DNA of 41,122 nucleotides, taken from Candidatus Babeliales bacterium (GTDB taxonomy: Bacteria; Babelota; Babeliae; Babelales; Vermiphilaceae). The notes below the pieces were generated by a model. That model was given only the letters and a program-made list of their open reading frames with translations. It had not been told where the DNA came from and ran no database searches. Of the stretch, positions 210-26,630 are shown piece after piece. The stretch spans positions 1-41,122 of the forward strand of contig CAVUQO010000001.1 of assembly GCA_963743635.1 (NCBI GenBank), read 5' to 3'. Positions within the stretch are counted from its first letter, which is position 1. The number at the start of each line of letters is the position of its first letter. The translations under genes were made by a program, and so were the position numbers.

Positions 210-2021
210 TTATATTTTTTTAATACACCATAAAGAAGTCCCTTGATGTGTTCCTCGCTGTTCTAAACGAAAACCGCTTTCAATACGATTTTTATAAAGG
301 AGTAATTTCTTTGCTAAACTGCGTTTGTTAATAGCGTCTTTGTTATTATCAGCAGTCAGCTCTGAAAGTGCTTCGTGCAGTTGTTCTTGTGTTTCTTTTG
401 TATCATCATTAATGTTCGTAGCTCGCTCAACGAGATCTTTTACCTTAATAGGTTGATCCCCAAAAAGCTCGTACCACGCGATAAAAAGTGAGGTAAGCAA
501 TAGGCGTATGGGATCTGATTTTTCTATATCTTTTCGACTTTCGCATGGATCGCTCATGCCTATCCATATTATGGCGGTCTAATCCAGTTGCTCCATTCTT
601 CAAATCTGCCAAATGGTTTTATGTTTTGCAGAGGCTTTCCGGCAACATCGTATGCTCTTAAAATAATTAAGCCGGCATTCACTAAGTCAGTTGGATGTTC
701 AGGTATATAGGTACGAAGATCTACTGAAAATTCTCGCTCCTCGGGCCGTTCAATTTGTGGATCGAGCTTACATAATAGAGCCCGCGTTGATATGTCACCC
801 ATAAAAACAAGGTTATTGCCCGTTACCAAGAAAGTTGCATTCGTTAACACTGTTCTGGTTTCATTGCCTCCCAATACGATCTTTATATTCATGTTGTGTC
901 AAAATAGAACATAAAGAGGCGCTCTTAAAGGGCTTTTCTATATTGTCATAGCAAATGATAGGGTCGCCTTCAATGAGAACGGCCATGATACGTTTTTTTT
1001 CCTCAGTTTCATTTTCAGCTTGAGCAATGACACTATTAGCTTTTCCAGTAGCAATCAATGAGACTGTGTCTGCGAGAAGGCTTTTTCCACTTGCCATTTT
1101 AGGAGCAGTGAAACCGAATAGTGGTGCGGTCGCGATAGATTTTCTAACCAGAGCGGTAAGAATTGCAGCTAGAACCACTGATCTACTTGCATCATCTTCA
1201 AAGGGAAAATCTTTAAAGAGAGACAATAATCTCTCTTTGGCGTTCATAGCATCTTGCAATGTAGGTTGTTGGGGGATTTTTTCAAACGTATGATCGCCTG
1301 GAAAGAACAGAAGCCCTGAAGTTGCATCATATCCCGGGCAATCTAGTATAGAGCCATCAACTCTCAATGTTGGTGCATTGATTATTCCCGTTAAAACCGG
1401 TATATTCCATTCCTGTTTTGCAATCAAATATCTGGAAATCCTTTCTGGGCAATCGATTTTTTTCAAGCTCCCAGATCTAGCATCAAATGTTACAAAGTCT
1501 CCTAATTTAGTCAGATGTACCGTTAAGAATGCTTGATCAATTTCTTTTATGACTAAGGCCTTTGGTGCCCTTTTTATTAAGCTTTTTTTAGAATTCGGCG
1601 CATTGGAAATTGTTGTGACTCGTACTAATTTGCCTGAGCGCTGATAAATGTCTTTTTGCTTCAATAAAAGCTTTTCAGCTCCATCTACGGACTCCGGAAG
1701 TTTTGAGGGTTCAAGATAAATTGTGCTTTCAAAAGCTTGTTTTTTTTCAAGGTACGATCTATAAGAAGCCTGCAATTCAATAACTTGAGATGCTTTGACT
1801 TGCTCTAAGCCTTCAATTGGTAATTCCAGCAACTTTTCCCAAGATAGTTTTTCATAGCCAAGTTCCCGTTTTTGGGAGCTAAGATTGCTTTCTTGCTCTG
1901 TTAAATCTTCTTGAGCGGTATTACGAGTATTTTCATAAGAAAAGCTAGTAGGTTCTTTTTTATCTTTTTTTTGATTTGTGGTATTATTTTTTTGCATTAA
2001 AATTCCTGGTTGAGAGCGCAC
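210..2021 (-). pseudogene. Satellite/phage primase-helicase-type P-loop protein, split by two frameshifts (ORFs 861..2021, 569..892, 210..557)
   Basis: Walker A-like APKMASGKSLL and downstream IICYDN. The frames join naturally: YKDR/VLGGNETR near 875 and SNWIR/(S)AIIWIGMSDP near 577. Confidence 0.7.
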
Positions 2022-2740: not shown

Positions 2741-2908
2741 AAGGACCTCTTGGTTTAAGAGGGTTCCTTGGGGGGCTATAAGAGAAATTCGAGATAATTA
2801 TATACAAAGAAATGTACATAATGTATGCTCAGGATACCAACACGAAGGGATCCAAAGTCCCGAATTTAAGAAGGTTATTGAGTTGACGCTCAATAATCTT
2901 CGCTCTTT

Positions 2909-3982
2909 TTAATCCTCAATGGGAACCTCGTTGATTATATTCTTGTAACTTTGGCTAAGTGCGAGCCAGGTTGCCCGCATGGTGTCAGGTTGTACGTGTT
3001 TGATATTTGCATCATTGCTCGCTTGAGTGAACGAATGATTGATTCTGGATCGTGTCAGCGGTCTTCCTTTTCTTGTAATGAATACATAGTTACTGTCTTT
3101 TCGTTGTTCTTGTGTTGATGCGATGTAGTCAGCTAATTTCTTCATGAATGACTCTGGGTAGTCTACGGGTCTTTCATATACAATATTGTTCTTTGTTTGC
3201 GGAAATCTAATGATGTTTTTGTGAAAATCAACTCGATCCAACGTGAGTTCAAGAACATCGGATATTCGTGCGATACCGTAAAACATAGAGAGGGCGATTA
3301 GATAATCTCGATAGTTGTTTTTGGCCAATGCGGCATTGAATTTTTTCAGGTCTTCGAGTGAAAGAGCTTTCCACGTTGTTTTGAGTGTAGAGCGGTAAGC
3401 AGATCTCTTTAGGGATGTTACGGGCTGCACTCTTCTAAACCAGCCATCGGTTATACGTTCGAGATAGATAGTAAATGAGATGTAGCATTCAATGCGTGCT
3501 TTTCTTGCAGCCTCGGACAAATCAGTCATCTGTTCTATATACTCTATGATTGATTTTTGATTGATATGCCTCAATCCACCAACGCTGAAATCCTGTCCAC
3601 TGGAAAAAGTGAGAGGAATAGCATTTCTGTTTAAAAGATCGGTCATATATGATGCATATTTGATACGAGTGTCTTCTTCTAGCCCGTTGAGCCATAGAGG
3701 AGTAATGTCGGTTACGGCGATGTAATCGAGTTCATCATTTAGGATACGTTGAGCCCGCTTGATTGCTTCCCGAAGTTGAAAAACCTTATACGTTCCCTCA
3801 GTGAGTTTAAGGATGGGGAATTGTTTTTCAACGACATGCATTTTTTCTAGCACTATTTTCGTTCTTGCAAGATCTTCTTCGCTCATCGGCGGGATGATAA
3901 TATCCTGCGACAGTTCGAGATACTTATCAAACTCCTCCGGCGAAGGTAAGGACGAGCAAGATTGTTTAGTGAGCATACGCAT
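2909..3982 (-). CDS. Tyrosine recombinase of the chlamydial plasmid pGP7-D/pGP8-D type, apparently catalytically incomplete
   Basis: ARIECYISFTIYLERITDG, NYRDYLIA..FYGIARISDVL (box I Arg) and VFITRKGRPL are present. HxxR reads DTMR, and the protein ends 21 aa after that Arg with no box II H/W...Y. Confidence 0.85.
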   Translation of the reverse strand: MRMLTKQSCSSLPSPEEFDKYLELSQDIIIPPMSEEDLARTKIVLEKMHVVEKQFPILKLTEGTYKVFQLREAIKRAQRILNDELDYIAVTDITPLWLNGLEEDTRIKYASYMTDLLNRNAIPLTFSSGQDFSVGGLRHINQKSIIEYIEQMTDLSEAARKARIECYISFTIYLERITDGWFRRVQPVTSLKRSAYRSTLKTTWKALSLEDLKKFNAALAKNNYRDYLIALSMFYGIARISDVLELTLDRVDFHKNIIRFPQTKNNIVYERPVDYPESFMKKLADYIASTQEQRKDSNYVFITRKGRPLTRSRINHSFTQASNDANIKHVQPDTMRATWLALSQSYKNIINEVPIED

Positions 3983-4014
3983 TCCTTTGGTGTTTTTTAT
4001 AGTTAATGGCGATC

Positions 4015-4043
4015 ACTATACTACTGTTCTCTGTTCTGTGCAA
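4015..4043 (-). promoter_or_regulatory. sigma70-like promoter of the recombinase
   Basis: Minus strand TTGCAC-17 bp-TATAGT, 33 bp upstream of the start codon. Confidence 0.65.
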
Positions 4044-4068
4044 GTTTTACATCACAACGTATATAATT

Positions 4069-4194
4069 TTATTGCGGGACAGGTAACCTGAGTTCTGAAA
4101 AGGCCGTCTGAATGCGTTGCAAACTAAAATCGAATGTGATATCCTTGTTAAGGAATAGGTCTACTAAGGGCCGGAGCTTCTTCATGAAGTTCAC
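4069..4194 (-). CDS. Small peptide of repeat copy 1, 41 aa (MNFMKKLRPLVDLFLNKDITFDFSLQRIQTAFSELRLPVPQ); candidate antisense-controlled toxin or leader peptide
   Basis: GTG at 4194 (or ATG at 4185), with GAGGA upstream inside the hairpin. Ungapped homology to the copy-4 peptide, with synonymous codon differences. Confidence 0.6.
   Translation of the reverse strand: MNFMKKLRPLVDLFLNKDITFDFSLQRIQTAFSELRLPVPQ
4117..4145 (+). promoter_or_regulatory. sigma70-like promoter for copy-1 sRNA, inside the antisense peptide ORF
   Basis: TTGCAA-17 bp-TATCCT with an extended -10 TG. Confidence 0.6.
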
Positions 4195-4237
4195 ACATAA
4201 AATTAGATCCTCTGGAGAAATCCAGGGGATTTTTTTT
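4152..4237 (+). ncRNA. Repeat copy 1 (subtype A): putative ~85-nt structured sRNA
   Basis: Hairpin gagcttc-ttcat-gaagttc; 27-bp core gaagttcacacataaaattagatcctc (4186-4212); terminator atcctctgga-GAAA-tccaggggat followed by a T tract. Confidence 0.6.
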
Positions 4238-4254
4238 ACATAAAAATGCGGTTT

Positions 4255-4283
4255 ATTTTAGAATGAAGTAGGAAGGCTTTTAA
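4255..4283 (-). promoter_or_regulatory. Possible promoter for the copy-1 peptide mRNA
   Basis: Minus strand TTAAAA-17 bp-TAAAAT pointing into the repeat. Confidence 0.35.
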
Positions 4284-4306
4284 GGCCCTACGATTGGAAG
4301 GGGAAA

Positions 4307-5080
4307 TTGTTTATGTTATTGCCAGAAAAATTTAACCAAGGGTACATTATTGAGTGGGTGTATGAAGGGAAAGGGCTTAGAGATTTTACCGATGATGATT
4401 TGCGGTTTATCATACCTCTTGATCAACGATTTAGAGAAAGACAAAGACTTGCAAATGAGCTACGCGAAAAAATTATTAACCCCCTAATAGTTTTGAAGAA
4501 TAAGCACTCTATCTTAAAAGAGGTTTTGATTCGTTCAGAAGAAATCAGTCATAGTTTGCTGTATAAATTAATCGAGGACTCTGCGAGACAAAATATAACA
4601 GATTTTTACGATCTGATGGATAAATTTATTGATTTGCTTGGGCAATATAAAAATAATTATTCACCTTTGTTTAATAAAGACTCTCAAAAAAAACTTCTTA
4701 AGGCTTGCAGTACGCCTGAAAACATTGATAAATACTGCGAACTAAGCAATCTTATCGATCAAAAAAGGAATTACCTATTTTCGTCGTTTAACCAAAATGG
4801 TGAGATCCAAAAAGATAGCTGGTGTAAGCTGATCGATGATGTGAGAGCAAATCGGGATAAAATAAAATCTTATCGCGATAAAGTCGCAAGTCATGCAGAT
4901 GACGAATTAGTTAATTTAAGCTGGAGAGAGGCGGGACAGGCAATAGAATCTTTTCTTAATTATACCTCTGCCATTTCTACAGTTCTTTCGTTCGGTAATC
5001 GCTTTGAAACGGGTCTCTCCGACATTGAACAAATGATTAAAATACTGCGCAGCATATTATTTGAGAAAAATAGAGCATGA
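4307..5080 (+). CDS. HEPN-domain (AbiU2-like) putative RNase
   Basis: Helical-looking protein with YRDKVASHAD (Rx5H HEPN motif); SD aagggga upstream. Confidence 0.6.
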   Translation: MFMLLPEKFNQGYIIEWVYEGKGLRDFTDDDLRFIIPLDQRFRERQRLANELREKIINPLIVLKNKHSILKEVLIRSEEISHSLLYKLIEDSARQNITDFYDLMDKFIDLLGQYKNNYSPLFNKDSQKKLLKACSTPENIDKYCELSNLIDQKRNYLFSSFNQNGEIQKDSWCKLIDDVRANRDKIKSYRDKVASHADDELVNLSWREAGQAIESFLNYTSAISTVLSFGNRFETGLSDIEQMIKILRSILFEKNRA

Positions 5081-5898
5081 AGAATATAAAAGATATAGTG
5101 TTGGTTTTTGTGAGTACGATCTTTATTACTCCGGTGCAGGCAATAACTCTCGTGAAAGATTCCAAAATGTATATTCCCATAGCTCTATTATCTCCTGGTC
5201 AGATTCGCTTTACGCAAGCCAATGTGGATACTAAAGCGGTAAAATTGTCTCGATCTAAGGGACATTATGATAATGGTAATAGTTCCATACAAGAGACCAA
5301 TCCAATTCCCGTTGTTCTGGGTCCTGATAATCTCATCATCTTAGTCGATAGTCATCATGAATGTCTGGCGGCGCAAAAAATTGGCGATACAACCGCACCA
5401 GTCTTAGTGGTTGATGATTTGCGTCATTTAAATAGGTCAGCATTTTTCAAACAGGCGCAGGCCAACAATTATATATATCCTTTTGATTTCATGGGTGATC
5501 TTATGCCGATGTCCGAGGCTGGATGGTATACCTGGAGGCAGATGCAGGATGATCCAAATCGCCTTTTTGCAGCATTTACCGCATGGAAGTGTAGCAATGA
5601 TGGTAAGTGGACCAAAGATCCTAATGCCACGCAGGATCCTGCGTATCCACTTTGGATAAAAAAGGCGCATGAAAAGGTAAAAATTGCTTTTATTGAGTTC
5701 AAAATGGCAACAGTCTTATACCAGGCAGGATTGCGATATGATTATGCTTGGGGAACTAATCCAAATGATGAGCGCGTTGCTCAATTTACCGAGCAGGCAC
5801 GTTCAGTTTTAGTGAAAGCACTCGACGAAGAGCGCATTTCATCGTTTGATCTCATTCCAGAAAAGTTAGCATTGGATGAAATAATAAAGAATCAATGA
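5077..5898 (+). CDS. ParB-like nuclease family protein (ParBc_2-type) with N-terminal signal peptide
   Basis: LSPGQ, PIPVVLGPD, VDSHH and DDPNR motifs; ATGA overlap with the HEPN gene. Confidence 0.75.
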   Translation: MKNIKDIVLVFVSTIFITPVQAITLVKDSKMYIPIALLSPGQIRFTQANVDTKAVKLSRSKGHYDNGNSSIQETNPIPVVLGPDNLIILVDSHHECLAAQKIGDTTAPVLVVDDLRHLNRSAFFKQAQANNYIYPFDFMGDLMPMSEAGWYTWRQMQDDPNRLFAAFTAWKCSNDGKWTKDPNATQDPAYPLWIKKAHEKVKIAFIEFKMATVLYQAGLRYDYAWGTNPNDERVAQFTEQARSVLVKALDEERISSFDLIPEKLALDEIIKNQ

Positions 5899-5972
5899 AG
5901 TGCTCAGTAATGGCGCCTGCATGAAGTTCACACATAAAATTAGATCCTCGCACGAAAGTGCGGGGATTTTTT
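5897..5972 (+). repeat. Repeat copy 2 (subtype B, ~9-bp internal deletion relative to copy 3); would also terminate the HEPN-ParB operon
   Basis: Identical 27-bp core at 5923-5949; hairpin atcctcgcac-GAAA-gtgcggggat followed by a T tract. Confidence 0.85.
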
Positions 5973-6059
5973 ATGCTTAAAAGTGTGTCTTGTTCAGTGC
6001 GCGCAGCTCTCAGTCAGCTTGAATGGTTGAAGCATTTTTGCCTGTAGGCCCGCAGGAAT

Positions 6060-6347
6060 TTAATCGAGGTTATCGAGTTCGAGCTTTTTTCTATTTTTAC
6101 GACGTCTTCTTTTCGCATAAAGGGTATGCTTCCGAGAAAGGGTCCTTTTTGGCTTATTGCGTTGTTTGCCATGCCTTGTGCCACAAATACAGCTATTAGC
6201 CTGGCAAGCACAGGCGCAGCATGAATATGAGGTCTTATTAAGGGATTGGCTTTCTGGAGAATTCTCCAGAAATAGCGGATTCATGAGAGAAATAACAGCT
6301 AATAAGCTGCCAAGCGTCTTACGGGTTATTGCCATTGGATCTTTCAA
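6060..6347 (-). CDS. Small putative secreted protein with a Cys cluster and a very basic tail
   Basis: Hydrophobic N-terminus, CCACACQANSCIC, then KRRRRKNRKK. Confidence 0.55.
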   Translation of the reverse strand: MKDPMAITRKTLGSLLAVISLMNPLFLENSPESQSLNKTSYSCCACACQANSCICGTRHGKQRNKPKRTLSRKHTLYAKRRRRKNRKKLELDNLD

Positions 6348-6487
6348 GATATTTTATTAGCTATATTAAATTTAAGAATATCCGTATTTAGCCTTTTTGA
6401 AAAGAGATAATAGAGCTTTTTCGCTATTTACAAGCATTCTGAGGTATAGATCAAGGAAAGGGGGGACCAGCCCCGTTATGCGTCCTG

Positions 6488-6524
6488 TAATGCTTCGAAG
6501 TGCTGGCTGCGCTTCGAAGCATTA
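6488..6524. repeat. Perfect 13-bp inverted repeat
   Basis: taatgcttcgaag ... cttcgaagcatta. Confidence 0.7.
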
Positions 6525-6631
6525 GCGAAAAGGTGATACAGCGATTAAGTTGCAAAATAGATGAAAAATGAATTATTGATGGTTTTTTGCTTTTGGTAAT
6601 AATTGTTGTAGCTTGTGTCATCTAAAAGTTC

Positions 6632-6714
6632 GAAGTGTGGATAATGACGTCCGGAACTTCATCACGAAGTTCACACATAAAATTAGATCCTCGCACGAAA
6701 GTGCGGGGATTTTT
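6632..6714 (+). repeat. Repeat copy 3 (subtype B): putative sRNA, antisense to an 18-aa ORF at 6618..6674 (MNFVMKFRTSLSTLRTFR)
   Basis: Perfect hairpin gaacttc-atcac-gaagttc; identical core at 6666-6692; terminator as in copy 2. Confidence 0.85.
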
Positions 6715-6842
6715 ATGCCTAAAATTGTTGGATTATGCCTCTCAGAGCGACCCTTTTGCGAAAATATCCAAAGATGGTAAAATGAATGTAAGTATAGGTG
6801 TTATACTTACATTATTTAATAATAAATCCTTAGGAGGATACA

Positions 6843-7187
6843 ATGAATTTAAAAACTATAACAGCAGTAGCACTCAATGTCGTTACGCTTACATGCTTGG
6901 CAACACCAGTAAAAATGCCAGACGAAAAGACGCTCAATAAGAGAATGGCCGATATCGGCATGAATCATTTTGCAGAAAAAACGGGAATCGTAAAGCAGAT
7001 GGCCGGCCAACAAAAAGAAGCTCTTGCAGTTGTAATGGCTGTAGAATTAGCTCTATATGATTATGCAGAACTCGTGAAGAACCCTGCAGTGACTATAACA
7101 GCAAACATGAATAAAAATATGGTTATAGAAGCATTCTTACAGGATCATCCTGAAAAATTACAAGAACTAGCTCAACAGGGCTTATAA
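6843..7187 (+). CDS. Putative secreted hypothetical protein
   Basis: SD aggagg, signal-like N-terminus, and its own terminator. Confidence 0.8.
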   Translation: MNLKTITAVALNVVTLTCLATPVKMPDEKTLNKRMADIGMNHFAEKTGIVKQMAGQQKEALAVVMAVELALYDYAELVKNPAVTITANMNKNMVIEAFLQDHPEKLQELAQQGL

Positions 7188-7214
7188 TAAATAATATTGA
7201 TCCTTGATCATAAG

Positions 7215-7245
7215 AAAGCCTCAGAATTAAAACTCTGGGGCTTTT
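7215..7245 (+). terminator. Intrinsic (possibly bidirectional) terminator
   Basis: aaagcctcaga...tctggggctttt lies between convergent ORFs 6843..7187 (+) and 7299..7433 (-). Confidence 0.7.
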
Positions 7246-7298
7246 CTTGTGCTTAGCAATCGATCAGATAGCCATTAATGGTAGTTTTCTTCAGAGCT

Positions 7299-7433
7299 TC
7301 ATATCCATCTTCTTTTTTCAGCTCTTTCTATCTCCTCAAAGAAGGTTTGAAAGTGATGTAAACTAACGGTATACTGGATCTCTCCGATACGGAATTTGTC
7401 TATTAAGGACCAGAGCTTCTTCATGAAGTTCAC
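7299..7433 (-). CDS. Small peptide of repeat copy 4, 44 aa (MNFMKKLWSLIDKFRIGEIQYTVSLHHFQTFFEEIERAEKRRWI)
   Basis: Homologue of 4069..4194; it is the 3' part of track ORF 7299..7499. Confidence 0.6.
   Translation of the reverse strand: MNFMKKLWSLIDKFRIGEIQYTVSLHHFQTFFEEIERAEKRRWI
7347..7375 (+). promoter_or_regulatory. sigma70 promoter for copy-4 sRNA, inside the antisense peptide ORF
   Basis: TTGAAA-17 bp-TATACT. Confidence 0.7.
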
Positions 7434-7474
7434 ACATAAAATTAGATCCTCTGGAGAAATCCAGGGGATTTTTT
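7382..7474 (+). ncRNA. Repeat copy 4 (subtype A): putative ~90-nt sRNA
   Basis: Near-identical to copy 1 from 7391 onward; core at 7425-7451; same terminator. Confidence 0.6.
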
Positions 7475-7525
7475 GTTGAAAAGACATTAAAATAAGCATT
7501 ACTTTATAGTAGATAAGGGATTTTC

Positions 7526-8104
7526 ATGAAGCGTATGTTATATAACGGTCTATTGGGCCTCTTGATTGGTGGCTCACTGCTCTGCGCAATAAATTCTTTA
7601 GAAAAATCAGCGCATGACACCACTATAATTCGATCTCATATTGAAGCGTATCAGAAAGATAAGCATCATGATTTTGTCGCAGATCTCTTAGCTCGCGATC
7701 CGCATAACTTTCCGGATGCTGATATGGTATCCGATCTTGATAGTGATATTGTTGAAATCAGCCTGCAACTTGAAAATGGTCAGGTTGTTACATGTGTTTT
7801 TAAACAGAAGATATTTATATGTTGTCGTGGTGTCGAATCAATCGGTTTTGTGCGGATTTTTAGTATACCTGAAGCTCAGAGTGGTATGATTGCCCAAATG
7901 ACGGTTAAGAAAGATTTTCGTCGTATGGGCGCCGGTACTCAATTACTCAAGCATGCGATTGAAAGCCTTAAATCTGAAGGTATTCAAGAAATAACAACTG
8001 AGTCTGTGGCCGATAATAAAGCTGCGCATGCATTATATGAAAAAATTGGTTTTGAAAAAATGGCTGAACTGCCAGATAGTTACGTCTATAGAATGCAGCT
8101 TTAG
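7526..8104 (+). CDS. GNAT family N-acetyltransferase with signal peptide
   Basis: VKKDFRRMGAGTQLL (motif A) and NKAAHALYEKIGF. Confidence 0.9.
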   Translation: MKRMLYNGLLGLLIGGSLLCAINSLEKSAHDTTIIRSHIEAYQKDKHHDFVADLLARDPHNFPDADMVSDLDSDIVEISLQLENGQVVTCVFKQKIFICCRGVESIGFVRIFSIPEAQSGMIAQMTVKKDFRRMGAGTQLLKHAIESLKSEGIQEITTESVADNKAAHALYEKIGFEKMAELPDSYVYRMQL

Positions 8105-8122
8105 AAGCGTGCGCTCAAAAAG

Positions 8123-8175
8123 ATGAATTCATAAGTTAAATTAGATCCCTGCAAGAAATTGCGGGGATTTTTTTT
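8123..8175 (+). repeat. Repeat copy 5 (degenerate, third hairpin variant)
   Basis: atgaattcataagttaaattag followed by atccctgcaa-GAAA-ttgcggggat and a T tract. Confidence 0.7.
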
Positions 8176-8263
8176 ACACATTTTCCCCTTTATTGCATCC
8201 GACATGCACAATTTGCTACGTATAAATAAAAATGGCTTACGAACCTCGAAGGGGTCACATATT

Positions 8264-10342
8264 ATGCGTTATTTAAAGCATCTTCTTTTAATCTTATCAT
8301 CTACTTTATGTAGTCCTCTGCTTTCTATGCAGCAGAACATTCCAAAGGGAAAGGAGCCAGCATCAAGCAGTAGGACGACAAGGTCATCAAATAACCAACC
8401 TCAAGCGGACCCCATGGCTTATTATCCAGCTGGTCTCGTTTTTGAAGAGAGCGGAGATTATGAGAATGCTGTTAAAAATTATGAATTGGCAATACAAGAG
8501 AAGGTTAATTACGCTGATGCATGTATCAATTTAGCCAACTTGCTCTCGAAAGGTTTGGGTGCAAAAGCCGATATTCCGAGAGCGATTAAACTTTATAAAA
8601 GAGCAATAGAGAGTGGCCGTATCGATCAGTATTACAATCTTGGACTACTCTATGAAAATCTGCAAGATTATGATCGAGCATTCATAAACTATGAATTGGC
8701 AATAGAAAAAAATCCTAGCTCAGCTGATAGTGCACATCTTAATTTAGTCAATGATAGTGCACGTCATAATTTAGCCAATTTATTTATGTCTGGCAGAGGT
8801 TGTACACGCGATGTTTCTAAAGCCAAGGCGATGCTTGAAGAATTGGCGCGAAAAAACAATGCGTATGCTCTTTATAGTTTGGGTATTGCATATCTAGGTG
8901 GAATCGAAGGTATCCAAAAAGACCCTCAGAAAGGGCGCGATTATTTACTCAAGGCAGAAAGAAAAATAGAGGGTTCAAACGATGAAAGTGAACGGTTGTT
9001 GTATCCTCGAGTACTTATCGCTTTAGGTTCTTTGTCAGAATGGGGAATAGGTACAGGGAAGTCAATTAAAGACGCCAGCACATATTATACTAAAGCCGAT
9101 AGTATAAGAGGAAAAACGCACCTAGCGCGCTTGGTACTAACAGGAAAAGCACGTGGTGATATCGAGAAAGCAAAAGAAGATCTGAAGTCCTATTCACCAA
9201 AGGATGCAGTCGCCGCATATATATATGGCACGCTTTTACTTGAAGAAGGCAAGTCTGAAGATGCGGTCAGGGTTTTTGAGACCATATCCAAGCAAGCAGA
9301 TTTTCCTTTAGTGCTGCTGCAATTAGGCATAGCATCTCACTACGGTGTTGGTACTGTAAAAGATGAGAAAAAGGCACAGGATTATTTTAAAAAAATCGAT
9401 GAAGACGAAGACGATAGTTTTCAATCACCGTGGCTTGCTCGCGGGTATATGAGTCTTTTGGGTCTTGGCGTACCGCAAGATATCAACAAAGGCTTAACGT
9501 TAATAGACAAGGCAAAAGACAAAAAAGATGACGTCTTCTTTTCTGTTGACCAGTTGTTTCCAGCAGTCAAAAGAATACGCGTTGAGTTTGCCGCAAAAAA
9601 TGCTGCAGAGTTGCTTCGAGAGGAGTCTGAGCGAGAAGAAGAGAAAAGGAAGAAGAAGGAAAAGGGCAAGCGTAAGGCTCAGGGCGGCGCAAGCAGTGCA
9701 AGCAGCGCAATCAGCGAAAGCAGTGCAAGTAGTGCAAGCAGCGCAAGTAGTGCAAGTAGTGCAAGTAGTGCAAGTAGTGCAAGTAGTGCAAGTAGTGCAA
9801 GCAGCGCAAGTTCGTCAAAAGTTGTTGAACAGCCTTCTGTGGCATCGCCGGCAGCGTGGAATACGAAATTCATGGTAAGCGATAACAGTTCTGTCAGTAG
9901 TGTAGATCTTGGCAAAAAACAAATTATTATTGATGATCCAAAACGTCATGAGCAGCTTATTGTTAAAATATCAGATCATCCTAACCGTACATTTGCTCAA
10001 ATTGCGACGCTGCGCTCGCGTGAATTTAAAGACATTAAGAAGCTGGTGTATGATCAATGGGTTCTGAAGCGTCAAGGGGAAATGGGAGATCCACTTGATG
10101 CAGAGACTATACATAATCATACCTTTGCGCAGATGCTTGACTACGTCATACAATATGCAGGAAAGTTTATTCCTTTTCTTAAAAGTGGCTCTTCAGAGCC
10201 AAAAGACGAGTTGATAGCCAAGGTTACGCGTCGCGATACGCAGACTAATAAAGAAGTACGCTGTAAAGCTGAGTATACATTCTATGATATGAATGGGCAG
10301 CTCTATGTTTATCACCGTTTATTAAGGCCTGTGCCGGTATGA
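8264..10342 (+). CDS. Sel1/TPR-repeat secreted protein with basic patch, Ser/Ala linker and unknown C-terminal domain
   Basis: Repeated nLa.l...G.G...D motifs. The likely start is ATG 8264 (MRYLKHLLL) rather than TTG 8159. Confidence 0.88.
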   Translation: MRYLKHLLLILSSTLCSPLLSMQQNIPKGKEPASSSRTTRSSNNQPQADPMAYYPAGLVFEESGDYENAVKNYELAIQEKVNYADACINLANLLSKGLGAKADIPRAIKLYKRAIESGRIDQYYNLGLLYENLQDYDRAFINYELAIEKNPSSADSAHLNLVNDSARHNLANLFMSGRGCTRDVSKAKAMLEELARKNNAYALYSLGIAYLGGIEGIQKDPQKGRDYLLKAERKIEGSNDESERLLYPRVLIALGSLSEWGIGTGKSIKDASTYYTKADSIRGKTHLARLVLTGKARGDIEKAKEDLKSYSPKDAVAAYIYGTLLLEEGKSEDAVRVFETISKQADFPLVLLQLGIASHYGVGTVKDEKKAQDYFKKIDEDEDDSFQSPWLARGYMSLLGLGVPQDINKGLTLIDKAKDKKDDVFFSVDQLFPAVKRIRVEFAAKNAAELLREESEREEEKRKKKEKGKRKAQGGASSASSAISESSASSASSASSASSASSASSASSASSASSASSSKVVEQPSVASPAAWNTKFMVSDNSSVSSVDLGKKQIIIDDPKRHEQLIVKISDHPNRTFAQIATLRSREFKDIKKLVYDQWVLKRQGEMGDPLDAETIHNHTFAQMLDYVIQYAGKFIPFLKSGSSEPKDELIAKVTRRDTQTNKEVRCKAEYTFYDMNGQLYVYHRLLRPVPV
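9689..9814 (+). repeat. Coding 9-bp tandem repeat (gcaagYagY consensus, 14 units; mostly Ala-Ser-Ser)
   Basis: Read directly from the sequence. Confidence 0.95.
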
Positions 10343-10384
10343 TCACTCCTTTTTGCATACGGTAAATATGCGGAGACTGAATAA

Positions 10385-10460
10385 ACGAAGCGAGAAGAAA
10401 TTCGGGCGTCAGCCAGACGAAGCGTGCCAAGCCGGAAGCCCTGGATACGCGTAGACTGGG
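10385..10460. repeat. Intergenic palindromic element related to 17243-17290
   Basis: The reverse complement cagtctacgcgtatccagggcttccggcttggcacgcttcg resembles ccgtctacgtttatccgggccttccggctcggcaaactacg. Confidence 0.65.
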
Positions 10461-10466
10461 GATTTT

Positions 10467-11756
10467 TTATCTTTTGTAAAGATCTTGATAATCATCCCAA
10501 GTGAATGGGGATTTTCGAAGGGGGCGATTTGAGGATTCATCAATCATTGCCCATAAATCAATTGAGATGAACCAGTCATAAAATGATCTATAGGTCTGAG
10601 GAAGTTTGTCTATGTTTTGTTTTAAGTAATTTTGCGTATCCTTGCAAGCGACATAAGTCCCTCCTCTTCTTATTTTCGATGTTTCGATATAGGACCGAAA
10701 TTGAGTAACAAATTCCGGTTCCGAGAGAGTAAAACCGTAATCTTGTAAGTCTTCACCGATAGCCAAAATATCAAGCATTGTTACATAACATTTCATACAT
10801 TTATTGCAGTGTGTATAGGACGTATCGGATTTTTTGTGATGGGTACATACGATAAGTTGAGGTTTTGGGATATTTCTTTCTGTGCAAAACGTTGAAATAA
10901 ATTTTATTTTATCAGTTCTTGTCATGGTAAATGTATCATGGTGAACCCGTAATCCCATAGGGGATATATTCTCATCAATGAGCGGGCAAGCCGGTTGCCG
11001 CAAGGTTTGACCATCAGGGAAGATAAAAGTCTGCCACGTAAAACCAGAAGGTATATATAATACTGGTATTCCCTTGGCGTATAAAAAGGGTGCTGCTGCG
11101 CCTACCCACGATAATCCCATACTCGTATCCCAAAACCATTTAGTAATATCGATAGAAGCTTTATCAAGCGATGTAAGTTTTAAGAAATCACGATGATTCA
11201 TGTGAATAGTGTAGAAATTAAAATGGTGCGTTTTAGCAAACTCAACGGCAGTTTCATGCGGATCGTTAAAAGAAATGAGTGTTAAATTTTCATCAAAATG
11301 ACGCAATACGGTAGTCGTAGAATCGAGGCCGCCAGTAAATAAGGCAGCGGATTGAGCATTTTTTTGAGGCGGAGTGTGTTTTACCAGTCGATCTGGTTTT
11401 AGTTCGCCTTCCCAAGAGGTGTTATAAAAAAAACGTTTAAAGAATTCTTTTATTTTGATCAATGAATGATAGAGATCTTCATCCATTTCTTCAATGGTAT
11501 ACTCTTTGCCGGAAAGCCAAATCACCGGAATAACATTGGTGATGAGTGGGATATCCACAATCGATGGGGGAAGACTCTGGATATCTATTTCTTGAGGATA
11601 AGAAAGAAGTAAAGGTTGTCTAACATATTTTTTGCTAAATTCTGCTGATAAATGAAAGCAGACACTATTATCTTTAATTATTTTTGTCCTGATCAATGGT
11701 TCGGATGCATTGATCAGGACTGTAAAGCAAATCAGCAATAGATAGAGCTGGCGCAA
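10467..11756 (-). CDS. PP-loop (adenine nucleotide alpha-hydrolase/QueC-like) protein with signal peptide
   Basis: LFTGGLDST PP-loop and a C...HCNKCMKC putative Zn site. Confidence 0.65.
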   Translation of the reverse strand: MRQLYLLLICFTVLINASEPLIRTKIIKDNSVCFHLSAEFSKKYVRQPLLLSYPQEIDIQSLPPSIVDIPLITNVIPVIWLSGKEYTIEEMDEDLYHSLIKIKEFFKRFFYNTSWEGELKPDRLVKHTPPQKNAQSAALFTGGLDSTTTVLRHFDENLTLISFNDPHETAVEFAKTHHFNFYTIHMNHRDFLKLTSLDKASIDITKWFWDTSMGLSWVGAAAPFLYAKGIPVLYIPSGFTWQTFIFPDGQTLRQPACPLIDENISPMGLRVHHDTFTMTRTDKIKFISTFCTERNIPKPQLIVCTHHKKSDTSYTHCNKCMKCYVTMLDILAIGEDLQDYGFTLSEPEFVTQFRSYIETSKIRRGGTYVACKDTQNYLKQNIDKLPQTYRSFYDWFISIDLWAMIDESSNRPLRKSPFTWDDYQDLYKR

Positions 11757-11773: not shown

Positions 11774-12907
11774 TTAGTTTGAAATCTGTATTAAGTAAGC
11801 ATTGCCATTTTCCAACGTAACAATATTGCTAAAGGGAGGTTCATCAGCAACAGAAGCTTGGATAGAAAATTGAACGTAATCATACGCAGCCAATTCCACA
11901 AGGTTGCTGTAATTGAAGGAGTAAACCCCCGGTACGCTGGCAGAAACGGCTGGCGCTGGCGCTGGTGTAGTAGTACCATTAACGTTGAGGCCAAACGTAT
12001 AATCTGTAGAATTGAATGAATGTTCGTCAGAATCCTCTACTGAAAAATATACACTAAAGTTAATTTGATAGACCCCACTCTGCAGAATCGTGATTGTTGC
12101 AGGTGAAGTTGATATATCCATGTTAGAGTAGAGGCCAGTTGAACTAAATGGGATTGGAACCCAATTGGTATTATCAATATTTATATTTTGTGAAGAAGCA
12201 GAAAGTTGGCCATATGAGCCTGCAGATGTTCCTGCTGGACCAGTAGCGCCAGTAGCTCCGGTAGCTCCTGCTGAGCCGGTTGCTCCGGTTACGCCAGTTG
12301 CTCCTGCTGGACCAGTGGCACCAGTTGCTCCAGGGCCTCCCGTGAATGGTTCTCCGTTAAGCAGTAAGCTGCCATTAACATTCAAAGTTCCATTTATAAT
12401 CTCAGGACCATTAACGGTCAAAGCGGTTACAAGAGCTCGCGTATTAGGAGCGGTAATAATAACGGAACCCTTTACTTTGAGAGTGTTTGTTACCGTCAAA
12501 AAATCCGTACATAGTTTGCAAATCTTTTTAGCTTTATGACTTTTAAATTCGATATTATCGATAGCCAAATCATCGGTTGTAAGTTCTTCTTTATATTCTT
12601 GTAAGATGGATTTTATCTCTGCTGAAATGGCATTATCTTGTAGCGCGAGCGCATGGAGCGATTCATCGATTGCCAAGAGTATCGTGCTGCAAGGGAGCAT
12701 ATCATTGTCATTGCGAATATCATCACACATCTTCTTAAAATGTGATGTCCACGCATAATGCGGCATACCATCTTCAAGCATTAAGAATGCTGTTTGTACT
12801 TGTCTGGTAAGATGCGCAAAGAGCAGGTTATCATTGAGTGCGTCCAATGATGCATGACAACTATTAATAGATAGGCCTAATAACAGATATAAAATTCGCT
12901 TATTCAT
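11774..12907 (-). CDS. Secreted collagen-like protein with a BclA/C1q-like C-terminal domain
   Basis: 13 G-X-Y triplets (12224-12340), followed by ITILQSGVYQINFSV. Confidence 0.8.
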   Translation of the reverse strand: MNKRILYLLLGLSINSCHASLDALNDNLLFAHLTRQVQTAFLMLEDGMPHYAWTSHFKKMCDDIRNDNDMLPCSTILLAIDESLHALALQDNAISAEIKSILQEYKEELTTDDLAIDNIEFKSHKAKKICKLCTDFLTVTNTLKVKGSVIITAPNTRALVTALTVNGPEIINGTLNVNGSLLLNGEPFTGGPGATGATGPAGATGVTGATGSAGATGATGATGPAGTSAGSYGQLSASSQNINIDNTNWVPIPFSSTGLYSNMDISTSPATITILQSGVYQINFSVYFSVEDSDEHSFNSTDYTFGLNVNGTTTPAPAPAVSASVPGVYSFNYSNLVELAAYDYVQFSIQASVADEPPFSNIVTLENGNAYLIQISN

Positions 12908-13101: not shown

Positions 13102-13554
13102 TCAATAGCCTTTTGGGCCATGATAGGCTTCGGAATAAATCCTGCCTCGACGCATTTCCCCAATGATCTGCTTGTGCGCACCAATGATATTCTTGGGAAG
13201 TTGGTCGATACTGAAAAATCGCATGTCATCATGTTTATCTGGCTCATTATTATATGGTGCCGTCATATCCGTAAGATCTACTTTGAAACACAGAATTATG
13301 ACTTCTATTTCACCTTCACGTGCCACACGATGATAGGTATGCGCCAATTGAAACGCCGATTGGGGAATATCAAGGGTTATTTCCTCATGCACTTCACGCT
13401 TAATGGCTTCTTGGGCCGTCTCTCCTTGCTCAACTTTGCCTCCAACCATGCTATAAAGACCTTTGCCGAAAGCCTCATGGCACCGCTGCACCAACAACAC
13501 CTGATTGCCCAAGCATAAAAACGCCAATACATAAAAATTGATAACCATGCTCAT
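13102..13554 (-). CDS. NUDIX hydrolase (paralog of 21094..21525)
   Basis: Nudix box GGKVEQGETAQEAIKREVHEE; NEPDKH motif. Confidence 0.9.
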   Translation of the reverse strand: MSMVINFYVLAFLCLGNQVLLVQRCHEAFGKGLYSMVGGKVEQGETAQEAIKREVHEEITLDIPQSAFQLAHTYHRVAREGEIEVIILCFKVDLTDMTAPYNNEPDKHDDMRFFSIDQLPKNIIGAHKQIIGEMRRGRIYSEAYHGPKGY

Positions 13555-15191: not shown

Positions 15192-16094
15192 TTACAAATT
15201 CGCATTGATGGCGAATAAGTCGACGTCCATGACATCAGATTGATCTTGCTTGTCCGGAGCTGCGGGATATTGGCGCGGATCGATAATTCTTGCACTAATG
15301 GGTACCATAATCCTACAACTACGCACTATATGCTCAGCAAGCAACTTAACGGTAGGGCTTATTTTGAGATTGTTGATTGGTTCGCCCTTGGCAACTTCCG
15401 TTAAAGGAACCCACAATGTTTGCAAGACTTCACTTTCTTGCGCTTGTACCGTACCAGTAAATGCGCGCGTCATGTAATAATGGCAATAATCGGAAACGCC
15501 ATATCGATTGGCGCGTACACGATTTACCAATGCAATTTTTTGCATATCGGCAGGCTTGATCGTTAACCCAACTTCTTCTTGGATTTCTCTGCATGCGGCA
15601 TTTAAGGCTAATTCACGTGCATCCACTGATCCACCCGGATACATCATGCGGCCTTTCATATTTTTATCTTCGATGACTAACACTTCTTCACCACGGCATA
15701 CTAACACACGCGCGCCTGCGGTTGACGTTGACACGTCAGGCATTGGAGATCCATTTTTATACACCCATTCTGTTTTGGAAGTGTCAGTATAGTGAGGCTT
15801 AAATCCTGCCTTTACCAATGCTACAGCCTTTTGACCCTCTTCATGCGGCAGGTGAACCAGGAATGCATTTCCTTTTTCTTTTTCCTGTAATCCCGCAACG
15901 AACTGTTGTAGTTTCGTGCCTAATTCAGTGGGCTCAATCGCTTGCACATTTGGCCAGATGTTACCAAAATTATCTTTTTTCCATTGCACGCCATTCGTCT
16001 CAGAAACAGTAGCTTCAAGGTTGAGTTGCATGCCGTAACTCAATGGTGCCATTATGGTCGCGATAATAATGGATAGGTAGGTATAGTTTTGCAT
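15192..16094 (-). CDS. NUDT6-like NUDIX hydrolase (pre-Nudix domain) with signal peptide
   Basis: LVKAGFKPH...PGGSVDARELALNAACREIQEEVG. Confidence 0.85.
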   Translation of the reverse strand: MQNYTYLSIIIATIMAPLSYGMQLNLEATVSETNGVQWKKDNFGNIWPNVQAIEPTELGTKLQQFVAGLQEKEKGNAFLVHLPHEEGQKAVALVKAGFKPHYTDTSKTEWVYKNGSPMPDVSTSTAGARVLVCRGEEVLVIEDKNMKGRMMYPGGSVDARELALNAACREIQEEVGLTIKPADMQKIALVNRVRANRYGVSDYCHYYMTRAFTGTVQAQESEVLQTLWVPLTEVAKGEPINNLKISPTVKLLAEHIVRSCRIMVPISARIIDPRQYPAAPDKQDQSDVMDVDLFAINANL

Positions 16095-18418: not shown

Positions 18419-18540
18419 TGAGGTTCCTTCATATAAAAGAATTAATTGAAATCGCACTATCATACTTCATTTCTTCAATATATCCAACAGCCTGTTGCGT
18501 GAGGGAGGCATATTTCGCTTTAAAAAAATGGTATAGACGC

Positions 18541-18577
18541 AAAAAAGCCCCGGGATTTTTGCACCCGAGGCTTTTTT
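18541..18577 (-). terminator. Intrinsic terminator
   Basis: aaaaaagccccggg...cccgaggctttttt. Confidence 0.7.
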
Positions 18578-18599
18578 AATTCTTTTTTTTGAATGGCGT

Positions 18600-21093: not shown

Positions 21094-21525
21094 TCACCAA
21101 CCGTGCTCAGAATACCGTATTTTTCTTTGTATACATTCAATGGCTTGTTTGTGCGCAGGAAGGATATTTTCTGGAAGTTGATTGAGTGGGAAGAATCGCA
21201 AATCATCATGCTTGTCTGGTTCGTTATTCTGCGGTGTCGGCATGCCGGTAAGATCTACTTTAAAGCAGAGCGCAATAAACTCTGTTTCGGTTCCTTTACG
21301 ATGAAAGGTGTGTACTAATTCAAATGCACTTTCCGGAATATCAAGTCCCGTTTCTTCATATACTTCGCGCTTGATGCCCTGAAGGGCTGTTTCACCCGCT
21401 GCTACCTTGCCGCCAACCATGCTGTAAAATCCAGCTCCAAATACTTGGTCATTGCTGCGACGCACTAATACCAATTCGTTGCCCAAACATAAAAGGGCTA
21501 ACACATAGAAATTACACATCATCAA
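21094..21525 (-). CDS. NUDIX hydrolase
   Basis: GGKVAAGETALQGIKREVYEETG. Confidence 0.9.
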   Translation of the reverse strand: MMMCNFYVLALLCLGNELVLVRRSNDQVFGAGFYSMVGGKVAAGETALQGIKREVYEETGLDIPESAFELVHTFHRKGTETEFIALCFKVDLTGMPTPQNNEPDKHDDLRFFPLNQLPENILPAHKQAIECIQRKIRYSEHGW

Positions 21526-25889: not shown

Positions 25890-26630
25890 TTACTCCATGA
25901 TGATTGCAAGACCAAGAGCTTCATATGGTTTTTTTATTTTTGTTATTTCTTTTTTGAGATGAGTAACCACTTTCTCCATATCACCTTCGGTCCATTGAAC
26001 TTTCTTATCATTGCCAGTCTGAAGTTCAAATTCACCATTGGTGTTACGTTGCCAGGTAGTAGCTCTCATATCAAAGATCAGCCCAGGAATTGGGCCATCA
26101 AGCGCGACACCTGCAATGTATTGTTTGTTGGGATTACCGCGTCCCCAAATGTGGCCATGCAAAAAACTTGGTTCATGAGGTACGCCGAGTATGGTAGTTT
26201 TTGTTTCTGTATCAAATGCATGTGCATTGTTACCCACCACGGCATTTTGCGCAATAGGAACAATACGGCTATACGTCTCGGTCATCAAGGCGATCACCAA
26301 ACTGAGACCGATTCTTTCTTCTGAACTGTAATCTCGATTTATGGTGGATGCCATAGTGCCATTATGGATGAGTGCTACCAATGAACGATAGCCGCGTTTA
26401 TCAGTAGGATTTATGTATAGTGCATATTCAGAGTTCATATAGCGTGCAAGGGCAATGACTTTTGGATCGGTTAATGTGTAGGGCTGCAGAGCCCAATGCT
26501 TTTCAGGATATGCGCCGGTAAAGTATTTTTTTAATGCATGAGGCGATTCAGAAGATGTGAGATTAATGCTTGTAACTACGCATGCTAACAATACCGCTGC
26601 AGCGATAACGGCCAAGATATGTTTTTTCAT
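25890..26630 (-). CDS. Secreted hypothetical protein, possibly HIT-like
   Basis: GNN...FLHGHIWGRG resembles a degenerate histidine triad. Confidence 0.6.
   Translation of the reverse strand: MKKHILAVIAAAVLLACVVTSINLTSSESPHALKKYFTGAYPEKHWALQPYTLTDPKVIALARYMNSEYALYINPTDKRGYRSLVALIHNGTMASTINRDYSSEERIGLSLVIALMTETYSRIVPIAQNAVVGNNAHAFDTETKTTILGVPHEPSFLHGHIWGRGNPNKQYIAGVALDGPIPGLIFDMRATTWQRNTNGEFELQTGNDKKVQWTEGDMEKVVTHLKKEITKIKKPYEALGLAIIME

Follow-up and report, generated by a model that had tools for sequence, protein, structure and literature searches.

A five-copy repeat with a conserved terminator hairpin beside a decayed mobile element in a Candidatus Babeliales bacterium

Several bacterial systems place short repeats between small genes. 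Type I toxin-antitoxin loci such as Helicobacter aapA/IsoA and E. coli ldr/rdl and ibs/sib occur in several copies, and type I toxins are hydrophobic or membrane-active peptides. The attC sites of integrons fold into a long, imperfect hairpin with inverted core boxes at its outer ends. Genomic islands split a tRNA or tmRNA gene, restore the gene and leave a displaced fragment, as part of PMC4383910 describes, and 27 identical nt inside a 4.5S RNA gene make up the att core of a phage, as part of PMC12540744 reports. Furthermore, in phage SPbeta a protein of the MrpR/YopR type has a recombinase fold and is accompanied by a repeat, as described in part of PMC10516654.

We analysed a stretch of 41,122 nt (the window) from a Candidatus Babeliales bacterium (GCA_963743635.1, contig CAVUQO010000001.1, positions 1 to 41,122, forward strand). 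It contains five same-orientation repeats separated by unrelated small genes (Table 1). We propose that the repeat is a + strand RNA 3'-end module, which would form small-RNA genes in copies 1, 3 and 4 and terminators in copies 2 and 5, and that this arrangement may have arisen by insertion; we put the chance that all these parts hold jointly at about even.

Table 1. Coordinates of the five repeat copies and the neighbouring genes in the window
Feature	Position	Strand	Description	Score and folding
Primase/helicase-like gene	210-2021	-	Broken into three ORFs (861-2021, 569-892, 210-557)	
Tyrosine-recombinase-like gene	2909-3982	-	357 aa; divergent from the array	
Copy 1	4117-4240	+	Full-length unit: weak promoter-like site 4117-4145, HP1 4174-4192, core 4186-4212, terminator stem-loop 4205-4232, T run	83.8 bits; -32.9 kcal/mol, z -4.63
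Two-gene operon (copies 1/2)	4307-5898	+	257-aa protein, then 273-aa ParB-like nuclease (ParBc_2)	
Copy 2	5920-5986	+	5'-truncated unit	82.5 bits
Stretch between copies 2 and 3	5987-6575		No recognisable gene	
Copy 3	6576-6728	+	Full-length but diverged unit: promoter-like site 6576-6603 (9/12), HP1 6654-6672, core 6666-6692, GCAC-allele terminator	75.1 bits; z -5.82
114-aa protein (copies 3/4)	6843-7245	+	No known family; own terminator 7214-7245	
Copy 4	7347-7477	+	Full-length unit: promoter 7347-7375, HP1 7413-7431, core 7425-7451, terminator 7444-7471; predicted RNA of ~93 nt	81.8 bits; z -5.34
GNAT acetyltransferase (copies 4/5)	7526-8104	+	192 aa	
Copy 5	8122-8178	+	5'-truncated and diverged unit	70 bits

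The repeat family and its predicted transcripts

On the + strand, the 27-nt core (GAAGTTCACACATAAAATTAGATCCTC) has exact matches at 4186, 5923, 6666 and 7425. No further site was found in the window when as many as 3 mismatches were allowed, and 100 shuffled sequences gave no match at all. Copy 5 is degenerate (76% identity to copy 1 over 51 nt, 8128-8178), but all five copies share the 11-mer AAATTAGATCC without a mismatch. Copies 1 and 4 form one sister pair, with 89% identity over 98 nt in one alignment and 93% over 87 nt in another, and copies 2 and 3 form the second (94%). These exact-match and alignment searches bore out the first-pass annotation, which had placed the core at these four positions and a degenerate copy after them, with a GAAA hairpin and a T tract following every core. 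The repeat family is thus confirmed.

The terminator has the same form in 5 of 5 copies: a stem of 12 pairs, of which 5-6 are G-C, capped by a 4-nt GAAA loop, and then a T run. Intrinsic terminators have a G+C-rich stem-loop with a T run behind it on the transcribed strand, and all five copies as well as the one homologue found outside the window (L013) show this form. All 72 cells of the hairpin alignment are paired, and four pairs have changed on both sides in a compensatory manner. Covariation is 0.444 compared with 0.190 in shuffles, 0 of 500 of which reach it, and shifting the partner by 1-3 columns as a control lowers the pairing to 22-60%. Two invariant stem positions hold G.U pairs that are workable on the + strand only. 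The folding z scores are -3.0 to -5.8 on the + strand and -1.0 and -1.3 on the minus strand, where copies 1 and 4 were folded. The pairing, the compensatory changes and the fold scores support in silico one half of the earlier reading, that the + strand gives a structured short RNA. The terminator occurs as three alleles: copies 1 and 4 have TGGA/TCCA, copies 2 and 3 have GCAC/GTGC, and copy 5 has GCAA/TTGC.

The family had been described as one that was not recognised, and the Rfam search agrees with this: no match reached the gathering score over the entire window or over L013, and the sub-threshold matches (11 and 9, respectively) scored 10-27 bits against gathering scores of 39-180. The outside homologue comes from a Candidatus Dependentiae MAG and keeps the terminator stem-loop and T run but not the palindrome described below. 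A lineage-specific module is the best explanation of the repeat.

Copies 1, 3 and 4 have an additional 5' hairpin (HP1) and a promoter-like site upstream. The promoter of copy 4 (TTGAAA-17-TATACT) matches the consensus at 10 of 12 positions and is joint best of the 31 sites in a scan of 2800-10500, a region in which such sites are common (31 found and 20.1 expected). Promoters had been claimed for copies 1 and 4; that of copy 4 is indeed strong, but the one of copy 1 (TTGCAA at 4117-4122, 17 nt, TATCCT at 4140-4145, with TG at 4137-4138) is present but weak, matching at 8 of 12 positions and falling below the scan's listing. Since the preceding 114-aa gene ends in a separate terminator, copy 4 can be regarded as a stand-alone promoter-terminator unit. 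Because of the extra hairpin and the upstream promoter-like site, the best reading of copies 1, 3 and 4 is that of paralogous, stand-alone small-RNA genes with predicted transcripts of ~85-105 nt. Copies 2 and 5 have no such upstream part. The homology of copy 2 begins at CATGAAG, ~20 nt past the stop codon of the ParB-like gene (5898), and copy 5 starts ~18 nt past the stop codon of the GNAT gene (8104); each is the sole terminator-like site behind its gene, and they look like the predicted terminators of these genes. The core may act in trans; against this, no sites complementary to it were found elsewhere in the window.

A unit might also act in cis on the gene downstream, as a 5' leader based on a terminator. 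Copy 4 would fit this, with a promoter, an RNA of ~93 nt ending in a terminator and a gene 52 nt further on, and the sub-threshold Rfam matches, which are driven by the terminator, are to leaders (Leu, PyrG, PyrR and His). However, these leader matches reach 17-27 bits against gathering scores of 49-124, no conserved antiterminator pairing was seen by eye (the candidate partner is placed differently in copies 1 and 4 than in copy 3), and copies 2 and 5 are without the upstream part. We consider cis-acting leaders distinctly improbable.

Short open reading frames on the minus strand

The first-pass annotation read the locus as a type I toxin-antitoxin-like family, in which a + strand antisense RNA covers the ribosome-binding site and start codon of a minus-strand peptide. 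The minus-strand features on which it drew were found: the predicted + strand RNA spans GAGGA-13 nt-GTG AAC TTC of the minus strand, the GTG is replaced by ATG in copy 5, and copies 1 and 4 have ORFs of 41 and 44 aa. As in aapA/IsoA, ldr/rdl and ibs/sib, the unit exists as several paralogues, and the predicted short structured RNA would overlap a possible start region of the opposite strand. To the right of copy 1 there is also a minus-strand promoter-like site (4283-4255, 9/12).

Unlike in those loci, the ORF is not conserved and shows no sign of purifying selection, and the peptide is not hydrophobic and had no homologue in the search given below. In the frame proposed, the ORFs of copies 1-5 are 41, 21, 18, 44 and 5 aa long. 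Copies 1 and 4 differ at 17, 15 and 15 sites in codon positions 1, 2 and 3, respectively, and of the first 19 codons 8 have changed, every one of them non-synonymously. Neither peptide has a membrane segment, because the maximal 19-residue Kyte-Doolittle means are just 0.56 (copy 1) and 0.43 (copy 4); the GRAVY values are 0.03 and -0.41. Relatives of the peptides in other genomes were not found either, as the 66-aa frame containing the 44-aa peptide matched only itself at E <= 0.001 among 1,835,955,588 representatives. No minus-strand promoter-like site was found in the scan just to the right of copies 2-5, and 13 nt is a long spacing between a Shine-Dalgarno sequence and a start codon. The absence of a conserved minus-strand ORF among the copies is thus shown, and we regard a type I toxin family as extremely improbable.

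The recombinase-like neighbour and the genes between the copies

The mobile element that had been placed beside the array is right in outline, with the recombinase-like gene and the broken primase/helicase-like gene lying directly to its left. The three primase/helicase-like ORFs match consecutive positions (354-639, 639-738 and 746-861) of the 887-position PHROG profile phrog_29234. In the recombinase-like protein Asp replaces the His of HxxR (RATW is aligned with RHTF of XerA), and only 21 residues follow the Arg, so that the GH...Y segment with the catalytic tyrosine is missing. In the family alignment, this His is replaced by Asp or Glu in 12 of 13 members, which end 21 to ~35 residues after the Arg, and only P0015 is complete (TPHVLR...GH...Y). 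None of the nine NCBIfam matches of the 357-aa protein reaches its cut-off (best 60.9 vs 220 bits). The AlphaFold model (mean pLDDT 79) matches XerA (E 1.5e-7), YopR/MrpR (3e-4) and also SroF. The neighbouring mobile element is decayed.

Between the copies, the first cargo protein (257 aa) has a weak, sub-threshold match to HEPN_AbiU2. The cargo genes carry promoter-like sites of their own in the scan, and no integrase was found inside the cargo pieces between copies 1 and 2 or copies 4 and 5. The stretch between copies 2 and 3 holds a perfect 13-bp inverted repeat (6488-6500 and 6512-6524).

With its recombinase fold and missing catalytic residues, the 357-aa protein resembles MrpR (YopR), for which part of PMC10516654 describes such a protein together with its repeat, SPBRE; in both cases a short repeat is scattered between mobile-element genes. 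By analogy with MrpR on SPBRE of phage SPbeta, the protein might be a DNA-binding regulator that recognises the core in front of its own gene and of every cargo gene, with TGAAGTTCA, or TGAATTCA in copy 5, as the putatively bound palindrome. The altered residues and short C-terminus of the aligned family, the structural matches and the position of every unit, 50-160 nt upstream of a + strand gene, would all agree with such operators. Unlike the 15-bp DNA motif of MrpR, however, the array repeat is a strand-specific RNA hairpin module of at least 56 nt, to which binding is putative. Neither the strand-specific G.U pairs nor the compensatory stem changes would be explained by a DNA operator, and the palindrome is not retained in L013. 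An operator role is quite unlikely in our view.

The divergent recombinase-like gene followed by same-orientation repeats between unrelated small genes also recalls integrons, and the repeat might serve an active recombinase as attC serves an integron integrase, for capturing and shuffling cassettes. In contrast to attC arrays, there is no integron integrase match above cut-off, the tyrosine segment is missing, and the repeat forms a perfect hairpin of 12 bp, with GAAA as its loop and a T run behind it, and lacks outer AAC...GTT inverted boxes. Moreover, each repeat contains a terminator and the genes have their own promoter-like sites; such strong intergenic terminators would block a common promoter. 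We consider an active integron-like platform very improbable.

Small-RNA genes as candidate insertion targets

The reading that we favour, insertion into small-RNA genes, starts from where the truncated copies begin. Copies 2 and 5 start at the centre of the HP1 palindrome (GAGCTTC-TTCAT-GAAGTTC); their homology to copy 1 starts at 4180 and 4184, in or next to its 5-nt spacer. HP1 of copy 3 is a perfect 7-5-7 palindrome, and the palindrome in copy 5 reads ATGAATTCAT. The module would comprise an unpaired A/U-rich core (UUCACACAUAAAAUUA) and then the 12-bp GNRA-capped intrinsic terminator. Small promoter-bearing cargo may have recombined into the 3' half of such genes, which would have left a regenerated target (copies 1 and 4) and a displaced 3' fragment (copies 2 and 5), with copy 3 as a possible unoccupied version of the target. 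As far as layout goes, this combination of full unit, cargo and truncated unit is present twice, in copies 1/2 and 4/5, and it suggests insertion scars in what are probably small-RNA genes. The TGGA/TCCA allele is found in the full copies that precede cargo, which fits the insertion pattern. We also count as fitting the invariant core, with no substitutions among four copies, compared with the adjacent upper stem, which varies at 8 positions, and the recombinase-like and broken primase/helicase-like genes directly to the left.

The arrangement is similar to that of Islander-type islands and of the phage phiEf11 att site in ffs, in which a full gene is followed by foreign DNA and a direct repeat of the 3' part. 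As in the parts of PMC4383910 and PMC12540744 that describe them, an identity block (27-33 nt here) reaches from the point of crossover as far as the RNA gene's end, and a recombinase gene lies near one repeat. Unlike these islands, the array has inserts of only ~0.65 and ~1.7 kb without an integrase, and its target is an unclassified small-RNA-like unit with three paralogues within 3.3 kb. Several points count against insertion. The only recombinase-like gene in view lacks the tyrosine segment and lies upstream of copy 1, outside the cargo pieces, the cargo-side flanks of copies 2 and 5 are dissimilar, and the sole outside homologue is a single copy on a 7.4-kb contig without an integrase.

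The copies could also have arisen by ordinary local duplication of small-RNA genes, with no site-specific insertion, in which case the truncations would be chance deletions that were kept for terminating the upstream genes. The simple sister pairs, the lack of an active recombinase in view and the cargo-side flanks of copies 2 and 5, which are not alike (35% of shuffles score equally well), are in line with this. Similarity past the T run is marginal, being reached by 5.7% of shuffles for copies 1/4 and 1.8% for copies 2/3. However, the homology of the two truncated copies breaks off at the palindrome centre, at points no more than ~4 nt apart, and the terminator alleles track the full-then-cargo pattern. 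We regard duplication alone as unlikely.

A bolder version of the insertion reading is that the array is a new cassette platform, in which small promoter-bearing cargo without an integrase would insert site-specifically at the palindrome in paralogous small-RNA genes and bring a replacement core and terminator that restore the small RNA. Integration and excision would then depend on an enzyme acting in trans, either a full-length relative of the recombinase-like protein or a different one. We consider this unlikely; if it is true, an uncultured symbiont lineage would have an integron-like device for gene capture in which small-RNA terminators take the place of attC sites.

A strand-specific terminator repeat

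The array is an unclassified repeat of putative small RNAs and terminators, next to a mobile element in decay. Its 27-nt core, GAAGTTCACACATAAAATTAGATCCTC, is exact at 4186, 5923, 6666 and 7425, every time on the plus strand, and a fifth, diverged copy follows (copies 1 to 5, see the table). The core has no other site in the 41,122-base window at up to three mismatches, and shuffled sequences gave 0 matches. Each core leads into a 12-bp stem with a GAAA loop and a T run, and all five copies contain the 11-mer AAATTAGATCC without a mismatch. Identity is 93% between copies 1 and 4 (87 nt) and 94% between copies 2 and 3 (67 nt); copy 5 shares 81-83% with the others. The repeat is confirmed as the first-pass annotation had described it, with the 27-bp core, the degenerate fifth copy, the GAAA hairpin and the T tract.

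The stem was compared in the six known copies, five here and one on contig L013, which comes from a Candidatus Dependentiae MAG. Every one of the 72 cells (12 pairs in six copies) holds a standard pair, and four pairs are changed on both sides (TGGA/TCCA, GCAC/GTGC, GCAA/TTGC). The covariation score was reached by none of the shuffles, and sliding the 3' partner destroyed the pairing. Moreover, two invariant pairs are G.U and become C.A mismatches on the opposite strand. Plus-strand RNA folds with z of -3.0 to -5.8; among the minus strands, those of copies 1 and 4 were folded and gave z of -1.0 and -1.3. The structure belongs to the plus strand and is a strand-specific terminator module. Copies 1, 3 and 4 also carry an extra 5' hairpin (HP1), GAGCUUC-UUCAU-GAAGUUC, with GAACUUC in copy 3, immediately 5' of the unpaired stretch ACACAUAAAAUUA.

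Rfam gave 0 matches for the whole window at gathering level and nothing above threshold for 3900-8400 at E up to 5. Relaxed matches were weak and terminator-driven (17-27 bits, against gathering scores of 50-124). A role of the repeat as a leader or attenuator fits poorly with these relaxed scores and with the fold of copy 3. No tRNA or tmRNA was found in the window or L013, no trans target of the core was found within the window, and the plasmid collection had no DNA match to 3000-9000, nor to copy 1 in distant mode. No small RNA is known to have been described from this lineage, which appears to be Dependentiae-like, and a literature search returned no relevant result.

We scanned 185,579 species genomes for AAATTAGATCC, a gap of 10-20 nt and GGGGATTTT. 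Since this pattern includes both stem halves, terminators are enriched among its matches. There were 33 loci with one match apiece, and 32 of them were unrelated terminators or coding sequence, with the upstream core in none. The other was L013, a 7.4-kb contig, where 13 of the 14 variable stem positions are as in copies 1 and 4, the loop is GGAA and the covariance score is 65.7 bits, against at most 45.5 for the other loci. The unit is single and lies between two plus-strand genes; its upstream part bears only a loose resemblance and lacks HP1. The contig has no recombinase-like gene and no gene in common with the window proteins. Whether filtered or not, a search with the covariance model, built from the six copies, gave no additional copy in either the window or L013; an ordinary terminator accounts for its 23-bit match at 18538-18594. 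The scan and L013 together therefore point to a young, narrowly distributed module. Upstream of the L013 unit, a G+C-rich stretch of about 140 nt (690-830, plus strand) includes GGATTCGAC; Rfam, tRNA and tmRNA searches of it found nothing, and its fold is not significant (z -0.93).

Full-length copies, truncated copies and small reading frames

Copies 1, 3 and 4 are full-length and have the look of small-RNA genes. The promoter-like site of copy 4, TTGAAA-17-TATACT, scores 10/12 and is joint best of the region, and the preceding 114-aa gene has a separate terminator. Copy 4 therefore stands alone as a unit of about 93 nt with a promoter and a terminator, and without a conserved ORF. Copy 3 has a 9/12 site at 6576-6603. 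Of the two promoters that had been predicted, that of copy 4 is the 10/12 site, and that of copy 1 reaches only 8/12, with an upstream TG. Copies 2 and 5 are truncated, and their homology begins at CATGAAG and ATGAA, respectively. Each lies about 20 nt past a stop codon, that of the ParB-like nuclease gene (copy 2) or of the GNAT gene (copy 5), and is the sole terminator-like site behind that gene; these copies end cargo genes, as we call the genes between the copies. PADLOC gave nothing significant on the cargo. No family match was obtained for the ORFs that lie between copies 2 and 3, or for the small ORFs to the left of the integrase-like gene.

The first-pass annotation had read the array as a type I toxin-antitoxin-like family, with minus-strand peptides and a plus-strand antisense sRNA. 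Its 41-aa (copy 1) and 44-aa (copy 4) minus-strand ORFs exist in the frame it gave, and neither peptide has a hydrophobic segment. In that frame, the ORFs of copies 1-5 encode 41, 21, 18, 44 and 5 aa. The differences between copies 1 and 4 fall on codon positions 1/2/3 in the ratio 17/15/15, and in the well-conserved first 19 codons all eight changed codons alter the residue. An alternative minus-strand frame, with ATG 9 nt from GAGGA, encodes peptides of 16 to 27 aa whose tails are unrelated. A 66-aa frame containing the 44-aa peptide matched only itself among 1.84 billion representative proteins. Variable lengths, non-synonymous changes and the lack of a hydrophobic segment and of a homologue argue against a type I toxin family, and the toxin-antitoxin reading is not supported by the sequences. 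The small-RNA half of that interpretation is plausible, given the plus-strand structure and the promoter-terminator layout. A plus-strand ORF of 18-19 aa (MKFTHKIRSS...) was also dropped: only copies 1, 2 and 4 have it intact, its start codon is ACG in copy 3, and it stops after three codons in copy 5.

Two features of the surrounding DNA were also recorded. A perfect 13-bp inverted repeat, TAATGCTTCGAAG, 11 nt, CTTCGAAGCATTA, lies at 6488-6524, in a stretch between copies 2 and 3 that lacks a recognisable gene. The 10-mer GCCGTCTGAA, which we take to be the Neisseria DNA uptake sequence, occurs once, at 4103-4112 just upstream of copy 1, most likely by chance.

The recombinase-like gene and its neighbourhood

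The mobile element that had been proposed beside the cargo was borne out in outline by a recombinase-like gene and a broken primase/helicase-like gene left of copy 1. The 357-aa recombinase-like protein matches Pfam Phage_integrase (E 5e-18), and its AlphaFold model (mean pLDDT 79) has XerA as best structural match. In the plasmid collection, its nearest named relatives are chlamydial plasmid integrases (32% identity). The family is small: 14 proteins were found, the closest 64% identical, and one member is named from a Candidatus Dependentiae MAG. In a profile alignment to XerA, the family-invariant RATW falls on RHTF of the HxxR motif. The His is replaced by Asp or Glu in 12 of 13 aligned members, and in the same 12 the chain stops 21 to about 35 residues past the Arg, without reaching the GH...Y segment. 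The one canonical member is the most distant, P0015, in which TPHVLR is followed by GH and by a Tyr at the canonical 32 residues; the chlamydial plasmid protein keeps TPHVLRAT and 46 further residues. Since the GH...Y segment is missing and the His is replaced, the window protein is most likely unable to act as a canonical recombinase, and its family may be a recombinase turned DNA-binding protein.

The three ORFs of the primase/helicase-like gene match consecutive parts of one profile (354-639, 639-738 and 746-861) and are therefore a broken gene of a decayed mobile element. In chlamydial plasmids, integrase genes likewise adjoin a DnaB-like helicase gene. As the window is apparently a complete contig, the far end of the element lies out of view.

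The recombinase-like protein may instead bind the repeat as a regulator. The model is MrpR of phage SPbeta, which binds the SPBRE repeat according to PMC10516654, and MrpR structures are among the fold matches of the 357-aa protein; however, such a regulator would leave the RNA-level signals unexplained. An active integron-like platform at the repeats fits poorly with the integrase-model scores, the promoter-like sites of the cargo and the absent tyrosine segment.

Elsewhere in the window, the many eukaryote-like repeat proteins are typical of bacteria inside protists. The only named relatives that a search gave for the HIT-related protein are from bdelloid rotifers (Adineta, Rotaria, Didymodactylos), where it is fused to a phosphoglycerate-mutase-like domain, which hints at exchange with eukaryotes.

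Repeat copies and genes of the window
Feature	Position	Strand	Remarks
Copy 1	near 4117-4240	+	full-length
Copy 2	near 5920-5986	+	truncated
Copy 3	near 6576-6728	+	full-length
Copy 4	near 7347-7477	+	full-length
Copy 5	8122-8178	+	truncated
Recombinase-like protein	2909-3982	-	357 aa; directly left of copy 1; tyrosine-recombinase fold
Broken primase/helicase-like gene	210-2021	-	three adjacent ORFs; one PHROG profile, 887 positions
Sel1/TPR	8159-10342		eukaryote-like repeat protein
Collagen-like with BclA C-terminal domain	11774-12907		eukaryote-like repeat protein
WD40 + ankyrin	19468-21063		eukaryote-like repeat protein
WD40	27437-28957		eukaryote-like repeat protein
Sel1	35387-36427		eukaryote-like repeat protein
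NUDIX hydrolases, three	13102-13554, 15192-16094, 21094-21525	-	within 9 kb, HAD hydrolase gene adjoining
HIT-related protein	25890-26630	-	PF22088, E 1.4e-69

A possible insertion history

We infer an insertion history for copies 1/2 and 4/5. The proposal builds on these two pairs, in each of which a full copy, cargo and a truncated copy follow one another; copy 3 is also full but lacks a truncated partner. An element would integrate into the 3' part of the RNA gene and supply a replacement 3' end. In its favour, copies 2 and 5 lose homology at points no more than about 4 nt apart, at the centre of the HP1 palindrome. The full copies before cargo have one terminator allele in common (TGGA); in copy 3 and both truncated copies the allele is of the GCAC/GCAA type. 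Furthermore, four copies have an identical core, but eight positions differ in the upper stem that adjoins it. A matching pattern is described for insertions into tRNA and tmRNA genes (PMC4383910) and for one in the 4.5S RNA gene with a 27-nt core (PMC12540744). However, a working integrase is absent from view and the tiny cargo pieces carry none, and the cargo-side flanks of copies 2 and 5 show no significant similarity. No remnants of a second integrase gene were found near copies 3 and 4. The array may also be a product of duplication alone, with the truncations due to chance.

None of these readings bears on a long-standing open question. The family without the catalytic tyrosine adds a second candidate to the recombinases that have become DNA-binding proteins. 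If the RNA reading is true, the repeat is an unclassified small-RNA family that is not in Rfam, found in this form in one of the 185,579 scanned species genomes. If the insertion proposal is true, small-RNA genes would be landing pads for very small cargo pieces, an intermediate between classical tRNA-gene islands and integron cassettes.
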